64,000 nucleotides of DNA from Caulobacteraceae bacterium (GTDB lineage Bacteria > Pseudomonadota > Alphaproteobacteria > Caulobacterales > Caulobacteraceae), in NCBI GenBank assembly GCA_043742825.1, contig JAYTXQ010000227.1, positions 963 to 64,962 on the forward strand, given 5' to 3'. Below the pieces are notes generated by a model. It was not told the DNA's origin. It did not search any database and saw only the letters and a list, made by a program, of their open reading frames with translations. Shown piece after piece: positions 53,109 through 56,248 of this stretch (position 1 is the stretch's first letter; each line of letters opens with the position of its first letter). Position numbers and translations under genes: made by a program.

Positions 53109-54434
53109 ATGGATTTCGCCCTGTCACCTGAGCTCACCGCCTATCTGGCTGAGCTGGACGCCTTCATCGAAGCCAAGATCAAACCGATCGAACAGCGAGA
53201 TGACAATATCCGTTTTTTTGATCACCGCCGCGAGAATGCCCGTACCGACTGGGACAACAATGGTTTGCCCCGGCACGAGTGGGAGGAACTCCTGGCCGAG
53301 GCACGGGCGGTCGCGAATGAGGCAGGGCACCTGCGTTATGGCTGGCCCAAGGAAATGGGCGGGCAAGGGGGCAGCAACCTGGATATGGCGGTCATCCGCG
53401 AGCACCTGGCGGCCAGAGGACTTGGCCTGCACAACGACCTGCAGACCGAGCATTCGATCGTCGGAAACAACCCGTTCATCCTGATGTTCAAGGAATTTGC
53501 CACCAACGCCCAGTACGAAATGTACGGCGAAAAGCTGCTGGCCGGCCAGATCCGTACCGGCTTTGGCCTGACCGAACCCAACCACGGCTCTGACGCCACC
53601 TTTATGGAAACCCGCGCCGTGCGCGAGGACAAGGACGGGGTTGCCGGCTGGCGGATCAATGGCGAGAAGATGTGGACCACCGGCATGCACGTGGCCAACT
53701 ACATCATGGTTTTCGCCCGCACGAGCGGCAAGGACGGAGATTCCACTGGCCTGACGGTGTTCCTTGTTCCCGCAGATAATCCTGGGGTAAAGATTGAGGA
53801 ATATCTGTGGACCTTCAACATGCCCACCGATCACCCGCGCGTCAGCCTCACCAACATCTGGGTCAGCGATGATGCCATCTGGGGCGTTGAAGGCCGGGGC
53901 TTAGGGCTAGGCCAAAGCTTCGTGCACCAGAACCGTATCCGTCAGGCCGCCTCATCCCTGGGCGCGGCGGTCTATTGCGTCGAAGAAAGCGTCAAATATG
54001 CCCGCATGCGCAAGCCCTTCGGCAAGCCTTTGTCCGACAATCAAGCCATCCAGTTTCCCTTGGTCGAACTGGCTACTCAGTGCGAAATGCTGCGCCTGCT
54101 GATCCGCAAGACCGCATGGGAAATGGACAACATGCCCCACAAGGAGGTGGAAAAACAGATCTCCGACAAGGTCTCCATGTGCAATTATTGGGGCAATCGC
54201 TTGGTCTGCGAAGCCGCCGACCGGGCCATGCAGGTGCATGGCGGTATCGGCTATTCCCGCCACAAATCTTTCGAACACATCTATCGCCACCACCGCCGCT
54301 ACCGCATCACTGAAGGCAGCGAAGAAATCCAGATGCGCAAAGTCGCGGCCTTCCTGTTCGGCTATCTAGGGCCCAAAAGGGAGACATACAAAACCCTGAC
54401 CTGGGACGACGTGGATTATCGCAAGGGGAATTAG
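53109..54434 (+). CDS. acyl-CoA dehydrogenase
   Basis: ATG 53109 within ORF 52971..54434. GFGLTEPNHGSDA, KMWTTG and the C-terminal QVHGGIGYS...YRITEGSEEIQ blocks. Confidence 0.85.
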   Translation: MDFALSPELTAYLAELDAFIEAKIKPIEQRDDNIRFFDHRRENARTDWDNNGLPRHEWEELLAEARAVANEAGHLRYGWPKEMGGQGGSNLDMAVIREHLAARGLGLHNDLQTEHSIVGNNPFILMFKEFATNAQYEMYGEKLLAGQIRTGFGLTEPNHGSDATFMETRAVREDKDGVAGWRINGEKMWTTGMHVANYIMVFARTSGKDGDSTGLTVFLVPADNPGVKIEEYLWTFNMPTDHPRVSLTNIWVSDDAIWGVEGRGLGLGQSFVHQNRIRQAASSLGAAVYCVEESVKYARMRKPFGKPLSDNQAIQFPLVELATQCEMLRLLIRKTAWEMDNMPHKEVEKQISDKVSMCNYWGNRLVCEAADRAMQVHGGIGYSRHKSFEHIYRHHRRYRITEGSEEIQMRKVAAFLFGYLGPKRETYKTLTWDDVDYRKGN

Positions 54435-54516: not shown

Positions 54517-54753
54517 ATGGCTCTACAAATCGCAAATCCCGTCGTCGTTGCGAAGGTGCAACGGCTGGCCCGCGCTGTCGGCATGACAAAGACGGCTCTT
54601 GTCGAACGGGCGATTGATAGCTTGGCGGGGGAAATTCATCGCGTGTCCGACATAGGACGAATGGCTGCACTATTGGCTCAACTCGACCGCATCCCAGATC
54701 GCACGGATGCTTTCGATCCTCTGGATTGGGACAGCCACGGCCTACCGAAGTGA
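54517..54753 (+). CDS. vapB: VapB-family (Rv0623/FitA-like) antitoxin
   Basis: 78 aa. MALQIANPVVVAKVQRLARAVGMTKTALVERAI... and C-terminal ...DPLDWDSHGLPK. GTGA overlap with the PIN gene. Confidence 0.75.
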   Translation: MALQIANPVVVAKVQRLARAVGMTKTALVERAIDSLAGEIHRVSDIGRMAALLAQLDRIPDRTDAFDPLDWDSHGLPK

Positions 54754-55170
54754 TCGTTGTCGATACCTCCGCGATCGTCGCAATTGTCTTTGGCGAGCCA
54801 GAACGTGAGGCGTTTTTTGACATCATTCGTAAGGCCGGCAAGGCTTTGATTAGCACCGTGTCGGTAGTTGAGGCCAAGATGGTAGTTCACGGTCGGCGGG
54901 GTGAGCGCGCAGTCGTTCTGGTCGACGACCTGTTACGGCTCGAAGCTTTCGAGGTTGTGGCACCGGGCGTGCCGGAGATGAACGCTGCCTATTCTGCCTT
55001 CGTCGCTTTCGGCAAGGGCAGCGGCCACCCCGCAAGCCTGAATTTTCGGCGCTGTCTTCAGTTATGCCCTGGCTAAGGTGAGGGGCCAGCAGCTGCTGTT
55101 CAAAGGCAATGACTTCGCGCAAACCGATGTGGCTAGCGCTGTCGCGACGCACACCGCCACCCGCCCGTGA
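54750..55170 (+). pseudogene. vapC: VapC (PIN-domain) toxin with +1 frameshift in a T4 run
   Basis: GTG 54750: VIVVDTSAIVAIVFGEPE... In the annotated frame it ends ...SLNFRRCLQLCPG* (55076). Removing one T from TTTT 55043-55046 restores LNFGAVFSYALAKVRGQQLLFKGNDFAQTDVA...* (stop 55168-55170), the canonical VapC C-terminus. Confidence 0.7.
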
Positions 55171-55320: not shown

Positions 55321-55944
55321 TCAGCCGCGGCGCAGGAAATCAAGCTTGTTGGTCAGGGTGGCGTAGCCACGCTCCTGCAGCCGTTTGAGTGTTTGTTCAA
55401 ACACCAAGAGCTCCGCCTTCTGCAATTCGACCCAGCGTTTGTCGGCGCTGCCTGAGAACGTGTCCATGCGCAACACGTCCTCGTAATAACGCTTCAGAGC
55501 CGTCACCGGTCGGGCGTAGTCTATAATAGTGAGAAATTTTACCGCATTGATCTCGGTGATGCGGTAGTTAACACCGTAGTATCTGCGATTTGCGTTCAGA
55601 AACACCGACCCCTTCTGACTGAGGTCGAACTAAGCGTTGCAGCGTTGGAACGCAGGCCCGTCGAGCCGCTCGGGCATAATGATCTGGATGCTGGTCGTGT
55701 CCAGACTAAATGTCGTTTCGACTCCGCCGCCGCCCTCCTGTGGCCGGGGGTTGTCGTTAAGAGTGACAACGCCGCTAATGAGCTGTTGTCCAACGACGTC
55801 GAGGAAATTGTAGTAGTAACCGGTAGCCAAACCGGGGGCCATCAACAGGGGATCGTCGTCAGTCTTCTTCGGCGAGAAGACGGGTGAGAGAACACGCTCT
55901 GCCAGCTTGATACCGGCGTCGATTGCGACGTCTGTCCAGACCAT
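55321..55944 (-). pseudogene. stand-alone prokaryotic STING-like cyclic-dinucleotide-binding domain protein, one in-frame TAG (55630-55632)
   Basis: ORFs 55630..55944 and 55321..55605 share one frame (...FQRCNA*FDLSQKGSVFLNANRRYY...). Motifs appear in STING order: GLATGYYYNF, IQIIMP, RRYYGVNY, IIDYARPVTAL, LVFEQTLKRL. Compared with human STING recalled from memory. GGAG lies 8 nt before ATG 55944. Confidence 0.6.
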
Positions 55945-56038
55945 GGGAGAATCTCCAAGCTTGTCTCGCGGCTAACCGCAAGGTCGCGCATTTGCTTGGG
56001 TCTGGCAGCTCATAACCGTTGGCGCAATAGGTCGATAA

Positions 56039-56248
56039 TTACGACGTCAGCTTACCTAACACCACCAACGCTTCCCGCCCCAGCGCCTCGATTTCGCAGT
56101 CGATCTCGGCCAGGGCCAGTTCGAGTTCACCTCGCAGCGCTCGTGTTTCCCCCGTCGCGTCTGATCCTCGGGCCGGGTAAGCCAAGAATTCAATATGGCG
56201 CACTAAATCCTCGCGGGCCGCGAGGATGGGTTCGCGGGGCGTGACCAC
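56039..56248 (-). CDS. questionable small ORF (69 aa, GTG start, coiled-coil-like)
   Basis: It lies between the epmB stop and the STING-like gene. Moderately GC-rich third positions, but it contains the 9-bp-stem palindrome 56207-56227 and has no recognisable family. Confidence 0.2.
   Translation of the reverse strand: MVTPREPILAAREDLVRHIEFLAYPARGSDATGETRALRGELELALAEIDCEIEALGREALVVLGKLTS
56207..56227 (-). terminator. possible hairpin terminator after epmB
   Basis: ATCCTCGCG-GGC-CGCGAGGAT has a perfect 9-bp stem and 3-nt loop, about 80 nt after the epmB stop. The downstream T-tract is weak. Confidence 0.3.

Follow-up and report, generated by a model that had tools for sequence, protein, structure and literature searches.

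Introduction

How a STING domain comes to be encoded with neither an effector domain nor a cyclase beside it, in a gene that is also interrupted by a stop codon, is the question raised by positions 55321-55944 of a 64,000-nucleotide stretch of DNA from a Caulobacteraceae bacterium (contig JAYTXQ010000227.1 of assembly GCA_043742825.1), the whole of which is referred to here as the window. Bacterial STING proteins are effectors of cyclic-oligonucleotide-based antiphage signalling systems (CBASS), in which the STING domain is fused to a TIR domain, to transmembrane (TM) helices or to any of a small number of enzymatic domains, and takes its signal from a neighbouring nucleotidyltransferase of the cGAS/DncV-like type (CD-NTase) that makes cyclic di-GMP (c-di-GMP). 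As Morehouse et al. reportedly noted in 2020, they are mostly confined to lineages without housekeeping c-di-GMP. A preliminary description of the window had considered the locus to be either the silenced relic of a CBASS effector or an undescribed minimal STING-type receptor or sponge for cyclic dinucleotides. Employing profile, structural and comparative analysis of the locus and its homologues, we consider it fairly probable that the gene is a recently inactivated solo STING, the intact form of which most likely is a membrane-directed effector triggered by a cyclic dinucleotide.

Results

One reading frame and one STING domain

Two open reading frames (ORFs) are listed on the minus strand at this locus, 55630..55944 (104 amino acids, aa) and 55321..55605 (94 aa). 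Translation of 55944..55321 (-) confirmed the claim that these represent a single frame of about 207 aa split by one TAG, as it runs for 207 codons to a terminal TGA and its sole internal stop is the TAG at codon 105 (55632-55630). The ATG at 55944-55942 is credible as the start because it is preceded by GGAG and because GGAGG stands at the equivalent place in L040, a sister copy of the gene which is described below.

The joined product matched the Pfam family PF20300 (prok_STING) with an E-value of 8.4e-10 and 39.2 bits, the gathering cut-off being 27.1. The match extends over residues 36-187, in keeping with the approximately 38 residues previously said to precede the domain, and over profile positions 2-137 of 137, spanning the TAG; since the profile is matched from end to end, both halves are parts of one domain. 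A precomputed match to PF20300 is present in 12/12 of the homologues recovered in a first protein search. The PADLOC model of the TIR-STING effector (PDLC00729) was matched at profile positions 153-296 only, which constitute its STING half, and the NCBIfam model of Cap12 was also matched in its STING half only, at 22.7 bits compared with a cut-off of 450. The sequence match to the Larkinella Cap12 structure (8hwi) in the PDB had an E-value of 0.018 when the single sequence was used and of 8e-7 with the family profile.

As the window product carries a stop, structure prediction with AlphaFold2 (AF2) was performed on P0001, an intact orthologue of 85% identity, and yielded a model with a mean predicted local distance difference test score (pLDDT) of 79.4 and a predicted template-modelling score (pTM) of 0.76. 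When this model was compared with the PDB using Foldseek, the first 23 matches were all bacterial STINGs, the top ones being 7un9, 8hwi, 8hy9, 9lmq, 7ebd and 6wt5 (E-values of 1.7e-7, the best, to 2e-6). The target-normalised template-modelling score for these 23 was 0.39-0.75, with the lowest values against full-length TIR-STING chains, and the STINGs of oyster, human, anemone and Drosophila were ranked behind them.

The motif blocks that had been aligned by eye to human STING proved to be real, as GLAxGYYYNF recurs unchanged in the Larkinella STING, while the R-x-Y motif and the Asp of IIDYARP align with those of solved bacterial STINGs; in the family profile alignment, the AVGYYYNFL motif of helix alpha-1 is identical in 8hwi. 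The distance from the R-x-Y Arg to the (D/E)YAxP block, which had been given as 22 residues in both proteins, is 21 here (Arg121-Asp142), the value of 22 applying to the human protein, in which we take the corresponding residues to be R238 and E260. Residues F47, R121, Y123 and D142 do not vary among the 13 sequences compared and are aligned to their equivalents in 8hwi and 7ebl. The c-di-GMP determinants of bacterial STINGs have been described by Ko et al. as a stacking Phe or Leu, a lid Arg together with Tyr or Phe, and an Asp that contacts the guanine N2 (PMC8748872). The Pfam match, the profile match to the PDB, the Foldseek ranking and the contact residues together support the presence of a STING-fold, cyclic-dinucleotide-binding domain, and it is near certain that the locus is a real bacterial STING-type gene.

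A family of short STINGs

The first protein search retrieved 12 homologues of 42-85% identity and 195-264 aa, of which 11/12 are full-length, intact proteins of 195-209 aa, the exception being P0008 (264 aa), in which a frameshift has created an aberrant C-terminus. Homologues were located at seven genome loci, belonging to Methylomirabilota, Verrucomicrobiota (Limisphaerales and others) and the Chitinophagaceae genera Ferruginibacter, Flavisolibacter and Flavipsychrobacter, and on 19 metagenome contigs; the Flavipsychrobacter copy (L009:10001-10587) is crossed by a run of masked N in the stored record. When the genes were extended to their flanking stop codons, nearly all measured 194-209 aa from the first ATG, and open frames of this length leave no room for a fused domain.

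An exhaustive search of 1.84 billion cluster representatives with a hidden Markov model (HMM) identified 94 clusters at E<=1e-3, of which 22 were found at E<=1e-30, and almost all of these proteins are of 280 aa or less. No relative was present in the 2.9 million viral contigs of IMG/VR, nor was there a structural match in BFVD at E<=0.001. Members of the family are few, yet they are widely spread across the phylogeny.

Databases already name such proteins 'STING domain-containing protein', and the STING domain itself is known; what appears to be new is the cyclase-less family of short STINGs. Literature searches for bacterial STINGs encoded on their own retrieved eukaryotic cases only and no description of a solo, cyclase-less bacterial protein. 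The proposal of an undescribed minimal STING-type receptor is upheld in so far as a conserved solo family of approximately 200 aa exists and is undescribed in the literature searched, while the associated idea of a sponge found no support, there being no viral homologue by either sequence or fold.

The solo state is a property of the family

At approximately 25 homologous loci, no CD-NTase, TIR domain or recurrent neighbour was observed. All-versus-all BLAST of 122 neighbour ORFs from 17 loci revealed no recurrent family, its sole three-member cluster being formed by antisense ORFs that overlap the STING gene, and direct comparison of the upstream ORFs of the window, L001, L030 and L031 revealed no shared gene. 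In a Pfam scan of 119 neighbour ORFs from 17 loci only generic two-component domains recurred, and no cyclase was present in the PADLOC results for these ORFs, in which 25 of the 32 matched families were listed. The neighbourhoods of three homologues are unrelated, consisting of TonB-like, DUF427 and BLUF genes for P0001, gatB for P0003, and HTH_3 and glycosidase genes for P0006. Indeed, gene context differs between the window and relatives of 85%, 77% and approximately 62% identity, and only L040 retains the junction seen in the window.

In the window, the 63 ORFs matched six PADLOC families, among which there was neither a cyclase nor a CBASS component. A phmmer search with a STING-linked CD-NTase (that of L039, see below) detected nothing in the window or in the other fetched loci, and the earlier assertion that the window holds no CD-NTase gene is thereby sustained; searches with the deaminases of L039 and L041 yielded no recurrent partner for the family. 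Neither the window nor any of the loci retrieved was found to contain an ORF with GG[DE]EF, and no Rfam family, including the c-di-GMP riboswitch, was matched in the window at the gathering threshold. The window likewise offers no taxonomic marker, and tblastn of its acyl-CoA dehydrogenase against plasmids reached 70% identity at best, to Sulfitobacter, a match that is not diagnostic; the c-di-GMP-using proteobacterium of the preliminary description is accordingly a presumed host. Weak PADLOC matches among the 63 window ORFs to CARF3 (best 4e-6), E1-E2 (3e-5) and oxidoreductase (1e-10) models probably reflect generic similarity.

Inspection of the neighbours of intact orthologues, which had been put forward as a check in the preliminary description, therefore disclosed no cdnE, TIR or recurrent partner, and the orphan state belongs to the family in its entirety and did not arise through decay at this locus. 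The view that this locus is the silenced relic of a CBASS effector is contradicted by the equally solo state of the intact orthologues and by a ratio of nonsynonymous to synonymous substitution rates (dN/dS) of approximately 0.04, accumulated as a solo gene. Solo orthologues combined with purifying selection indicate that linkage to a cyclase was lost anciently and throughout the family.

Architecture and relationship to TM-STINGs

Members of the family are composed of an N-terminal helix of approximately 20 residues, a short Lys-rich linker, the STING domain and a conserved tail with the motif LQxRGYxxLxNKLDF, part of which is modelled as a strand in P0001 (residues 203-208). The N-terminal helix has a hydrophobic moment of 0.4-0.69 and a mean hydrophobicity of approximately 0, and is therefore amphipathic. 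No N-terminal window of 19 residues attained a Kyte-Doolittle mean of 1.6 or more in any close family member, the segments flagged being confined to the STING motif of P0018 and the aberrant C-terminus of P0008. The statement that the product carries no TIR, TM or other effector module agrees with the absence of a TIR or any other additional Pfam domain on the window product and of a TM segment in its close relatives, on which the scan was performed. The term 'effector-less' holds as regards named effector domains, but it overlooks the conserved tail and the conserved amphipathic helix, which lies where relatives of the family have a TM helix; this position of the helix and the presence of the tail make a membrane-directed output plausible.

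These relatives are the distant profile matches, proteins of approximately 200-235 aa which possess a single strong TM helix at the same position, followed by a basic stretch (referred to here as 1TM-STINGs). The family profile scored them at 60-101 bits, in comparison with approximately 32 bits for the Larkinella TIR-STING, and hhalign aligned the family with the 1TM group at 100% probability (E=9e-42) over columns 41-211 and 44-211, respectively, tail included. A variant arrangement occurs in P0013, P0023, P0032, P0035 and P0049 (and at L011:495-1259), where an extra hydrophobic N-terminal helix, WLGGGVxxxAGGxWAV, is located ahead of the amphipathic one.

A CD-NTase was found at one of the five 1TM-STING loci examined. 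This locus, that of P0043 from Spirosoma oryzae (WP_106141070; L039:2122-4908), is a compact CBASS comprising a deaminase of the cytidine/dCMP type, the 1TM-STING and an SMODS/AGS_C CD-NTase, and is carried on a small plasmid-like contig with Rep3, relaxase and MobC. P0070 is encoded on a contig of 12.4 kb (L041:4069-5478) as a pair of deaminase and 1TM-STING without a CD-NTase. The remaining three (P0048, P0054 and P0037; L035:6001-6651, L037:6001-6681 and L042:5198-5836) reside amid housekeeping genes, with neighbours such as a DEAD helicase, a Dyp peroxidase, enolase and an ABC-F protein and no CD-NTase within 5-7 kb. Cyclase-less members may consequently be common across the whole TM-STING clade. 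Judged from sequence, the window gene belongs to the TM-STING branch, which looks mostly cyclase-unlinked in this sample of five loci, and the membrane anchor has become an amphipathic helix in its family. The deaminases of L039 and L041 match one another at 1e-60, and 1TM-STINGs may repeatedly be partnered by such an enzyme.

A recent lesion and its counterpart in a sister lineage

Codon 105 is GAG in L001 and L030 and TAG in the window, and Glu is encoded at this place in all intact homologues. The same TAG is present in the Logan assembly L029 of run SRR23617268, which is 100% identical over the approximately 2.2 kb of overlap compared, this run possibly being the source of the deposited assembly; in the 81-kb contig of the NCBI record, the two halves are annotated as separate proteins. 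These observations corroborate the TAG as a genuine inactivating lesion. There is no lesion besides the TAG in the window gene, and comparison with the gene of P0001 resulted in a dN/dS of 0.044 overall and of 0.03 downstream of the stop. A ratio of approximately 0.04 that is low even past the stop indicates that purifying selection maintained the gene up to the very recent past, and it is near certain that the locus is a recently inactivated pseudogene and that the full-length product is not made in this genome.

A sister copy lies on a 1.2-kb metagenome contig (L040), to which a 61-aa fragment (P0038) was traced. The acyl-CoA dehydrogenase gene of this contig displays, at its 3' end, 91% nucleotide identity to 53954-54428 of the window, and the STING gene (L040:39-662) is identical to the window copy at 86% of nucleotides and 94% of amino acids, with a dN/dS of 0.036 at a dS of 0.80. 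The stop in L040 is a TGA at codon 96, which reads GGG in the window, and GAG is preserved at codon 105. Two sister lineages have kept the gene through substantial divergence, and each then gained a nonsense mutation of its own. It is possible that the TAG relieves toxicity, as had been suggested, a notion to which the independent stop in L040 lends some weight; an independent lesion in a sister lineage hints at selection against the active protein.

Disruption is not limited to these two copies, with frameshifts at approximately codons 100-106 in L028 and codons 63-69 in L026, and frameshifted ends in P0008, P0086 and P0103. The lesions of the window (codon 105), L040 (codon 96) and L028 (approximately codons 100-106) all fall in helix alpha-2, codons 96-110, corresponding to 55615-55659 (-); at three of approximately seven, this is tighter than expected, in a small number of cases and for a stretch that was picked post hoc.

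Features of the locus and adjacent genes

The features of the STING gene and of the neighbouring toxin-antitoxin module are compiled in Table 1. In L040, the stop codon of the STING gene is situated 18 bp from the acyl-CoA dehydrogenase gene and no vapBC lies between them, which implies that vapBC was either inserted in the window lineage or deleted in that of L040, and that STING is the older resident. That STING and vapBC arrived together as one recent island was considered and rejected on the same ground, the L040 STING abutting the same dehydrogenase without vapBC, and the two are separate events. A dip in GC content (0.52-0.58, compared with 0.61-0.66 in the flanks) coincides with vapBC and, like the varied surroundings of the relatives, is compatible with an accessory character of the STING gene.

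The codons surrounding the GTG at 55605 are conserved for reasons of the protein (KGSV), with KG being invariant or nearly so among homologues. A terminator-like hairpin with a T-rich run (55605-55628, minus strand) starts 2 nucleotides past the premature TAG; it is part of a conserved coding stretch and may have arisen by chance. The promoter and terminator scan returned consensus-level matches only. Directly upstream of the STING gene, a 69-aa ORF (56039-56248, minus strand; 54 aa in the NCBI version) has no Pfam match and was encountered in one other contig only, L029 of the same strain.

Table 1. Coordinates in the window of the STING pseudogene, its parts and the adjacent vapBC module
Feature	Coordinates	Strand	Basis and remarks
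vapB (Rv0623-like antitoxin) and vapC (PIN)	54517..55076	+	Pfam PSK_trans_fac and PIN; between STING pseudogene and acyl-CoA dehydrogenase gene
Whole STING pseudogene	55321..55944	-	207 codons, internal TAG, terminal TGA at 55323-55321
C-terminal tail, residues 188-207, LQERGYATLTNKLDFLRRG	55324..55383	-	Conserved; predicted terminal beta-strand; common to 1TM-STINGs
STING cyclic-dinucleotide-binding domain, residues 36-187, broken by TAG	55384..55839	-	Pfam, fold match and profile alignment
Asp142 (IIDYARP)	55519..55521	-	Equivalent to the guanine-N2-contacting Asp, PcSTING D252 and FsSTING D169; invariant
Arg121-Tyr122-Tyr123, R-x-Y of the beta-strand lid	55576..55584	-	Equivalent to PcSTING R233/Y235; R121 and Y123 invariant
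GTG opening the downstream 94-aa ORF, preceded by AGAAGGGG	55603..55605	-	Possible re-initiation site
Premature TAG, codon 105	55630..55632	-	GAG (Glu, near-invariant in the family) to TAG by a single G-to-T change
Phe47, base-stacking aromatic of helix alpha-1 (GLATGYYYNF)	55804..55806	-	Equivalent to PcSTING F171, FsSTING F92 and human Y167; invariant
N-terminal amphipathic helix, residues 3-22	55879..55938	-	AF2 helix in orthologue; conserved W3, A7, L14, F23 and K27
Shine-Dalgarno-like GGAG, 8 nt 5' of the ATG at 55944-55942	55953..55956	-	Sequence

Discussion

Based on the findings of this study, a working model of the intact protein may be outlined, which we regard as tentative and somewhat short of probable, being drawn by analogy with characterised systems. 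The protein would be a dimeric receptor for a cyclic dinucleotide of the 3'3' type, most likely c-di-GMP, which would be supplied in trans by an unlinked cyclase, by the GGDEF enzymes of the host itself or by an invader. Binding of the ligand would close the lid and promote STING-STING oligomerisation, in the manner of TIR-STING filaments, and the clustered N-terminal helices might then act on the inner membrane, with an output logic like that of TM-STING and other helix-based CBASS effectors. Ligand-driven filaments have been reported for bacterial STINGs (PMC9402430, PMC8748872). Such a gene would be costly to its host, which would account for its being sparse, shifting in context and repeatedly disrupted (in the window, L040, L026, L028 and others).

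Several considerations weigh against this interpretation. The mechanism is proposed by analogy, the N-terminal helix is modelled with only moderate confidence (pLDDT of 45-71) and could equally be a protein-protein docking or packing element, and the working mechanism of bacterial TM-STING is itself undetermined (PMC10732462). In hosts with housekeeping c-di-GMP, a lethal effector that responds to this nucleotide would be self-activating, which speaks for another ligand, another threshold or a role that does not kill. In addition, strong and long purifying selection and the synteny shared by the window and L040 suit a resident gene of the housekeeping type better than a typical mobile gene of defence. 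A CD-NTase at some unlinked place in the genomes is possible, as 6-10 kb of flanking sequence per locus and 64 kb at the present one were covered, and some of the disrupted metagenome copies may be assembly errors.

The foremost alternative is that the family has left phage defence altogether and encodes a non-lethal, possibly membrane-peripheral c-di-GMP effector or adaptor of normal signalling, in a role akin to that of PilZ, in which case the window copy would be a lost accessory signalling gene. The invariant c-di-GMP contact residues and the missing cyclase linkage are compatible with such a role, and the housekeeping neighbours, together with the long vertical residence implied by a dN/dS of 0.04 and the synteny of window and L040, fit it better than they fit a membrane-directed effector. 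Its hosts include Verrucomicrobiota and Methylomirabilota, which are generally users of c-di-GMP. We nevertheless hold this alternative to be rather unlikely, because the gene is very sparse, with 1.84 billion representatives yielding 22 clusters at E<=1e-30, the context varies among relatives of 62-85% identity and copies are repeatedly disrupted, traits that suit an accessory or defence gene better than a core component of signalling; furthermore, the sister clade contains a bona fide CBASS effector, and no partner or output is evident. A second account stays within defence and regards the locus as what remains of a CBASS operon that was silenced for its toxicity, its CD-NTase having been lost here and its STING being in decay. 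The family plausibly descends from CBASS effectors, given the CD-NTase-linked member of the 1TM-STING sister group, and the independent stops in the window and L040 agree with silencing. All intact orthologues examined are already solo, however, strong purifying selection has acted on the solo gene over a dS of approximately 0.8-2 and no CD-NTase fragment remains in the flanks, so that we consider decay of a local operon improbable.

The remaining alternatives concern the stop codon and the origin of the gene. It is very improbable that the gene still works, either as a two-piece STING that reassembles following re-initiation at the GTG at 55605 or by read-through or suppression of the TAG. 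The Shine-Dalgarno-like AGAAGGGG upstream of this GTG, the three of approximately seven family lesions that lie within helix alpha-2, the lack of further lesions and the dN/dS of 0.03 past the stop could be cited in its favour, but the Shine-Dalgarno-like bases encode the conserved KG, very recent stops explain the low dN/dS equally well, and the sister lineages differ in both the stop (TAG or TGA) and its codon, leaving no recoding signal. Intact single-chain orthologues are also the rule, and no suppressor tRNA, or indeed any tRNA, was found within the 64-kb window. That the TAG is instead an error of sequencing or assembly, and the gene intact in the organism, is a shade less credible still. 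The codon is just one base off the family consensus, yet the same base occurs in the Logan assembly (with the reservation as to a shared run made above), the lesion is a substitution and not a homopolymer indel, and the sister lineage has a different stop of its own. Scarcely credible at all is the possibility that the family consists of cyclic-dinucleotide sponges or anti-defence proteins of phages or mobile elements; the proteins are small and comprise the ligand-binding domain with no enzymatic domain, as would befit a sponge, but they are absent from the viral contigs and from BFVD, their neighbours are chromosomal housekeeping genes, and they have in common with membrane-anchored STINGs a conserved N-terminal helix and tail.

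Among known systems, bacterial TM-STING, a CBASS effector in Flavobacteriaceae and relatives, is the closest by sequence, sharing the STING domain and the C-terminal tail. It resembles the present family in size (approximately 200-235 aa) and in layout, with one N-terminal helix and a basic linker ahead of GLAVGYYYNF, and differs from it in that the helix of the family is amphipathic and not membrane-spanning. In contrast to the CBASS-linked P0043, the family loci have no CD-NTase, a feature that is also missing from four of the five 1TM-STING loci. The TIR-STINGs of CBASS (Cap12; SfSTING 7UN8/7UN9, Larkinella 8HWI and PcSTING 7EBD) share the fold, with target-normalised template-modelling scores of 0.66-0.75, as well as the AVGYYYNFL motif and the Phe, Arg, Tyr and Asp determinants, but the family lacks both the TIR NADase domain and CdnE and is distant from them (32 bits and approximately 15-20% identity). 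In TM effectors of CBASS and type III CRISPR systems, a nucleotide sensor (SAVED, CARF or others) clusters membrane-perturbing helices, and the cyclase is linked in the operon. The logic proposed here is alike, although those effectors possess true TM helices and other sensor folds.

STINGs without a cognate CD-NTase or cGAS-like receptor (cGLR) have been described from choanoflagellates and other unicellular eukaryotes (10.1101/2025.09.04.674280; blSTINGs of Culbertson & Levin 2023, PMC10732462). Such standalone proteins contain a bacteria-like domain (PF20300), recognise 3'3'-c-di-GMP by measurement and have been proposed to sense the nucleotides of others (10.1101/2025.09.04.674280, PMC10732462). 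The present family resembles them in its PF20300 domain and in having no cognate cyclase at the locus; it differs in being bacterial, so that the host may make c-di-GMP of its own, in having its ligand predicted, and in architecture, as the eukaryotic proteins mostly have four TM helices or are PNP fusions.

A broader possibility, towards the unlikely side in our estimation, is a bacterial STING pathway that is independent of dedicated cyclases, in which solo short STINGs, of both the amphipathic-helix and the single-TM form, monitor the host's own or a foreign pool of 3'3'-cyclic dinucleotides and not the product of a dedicated CD-NTase. If this were true, the proteins would be stand-alone sensors of immunity or stress, or guards against phage sponges and nucleases that perturb c-di-GMP, and the eukaryotic standalone STINGs that sense c-di-GMP would have in them a prokaryotic equivalent, from which they may derive; the nonsense mutations that arose repeatedly and independently in sister lineages would be the price of a sensor that monitors the self.

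The window copy is a dead gene and its direct value is thereby limited. The family to which it belongs poses the question of what is sensed, and of what output can be obtained from a helix of only 20 residues. A selected, single-gene STING clade in Verrucomicrobiota, Methylomirabilota, Chitinophagaceae and the host of the window would widen the view of bacterial STING as a component of CBASS only, and the family would provide a minimal soluble system in which to address the mechanism of TM-STING, as well as a prokaryotic precedent for the cyclase-independent STINGs of eukaryotes.

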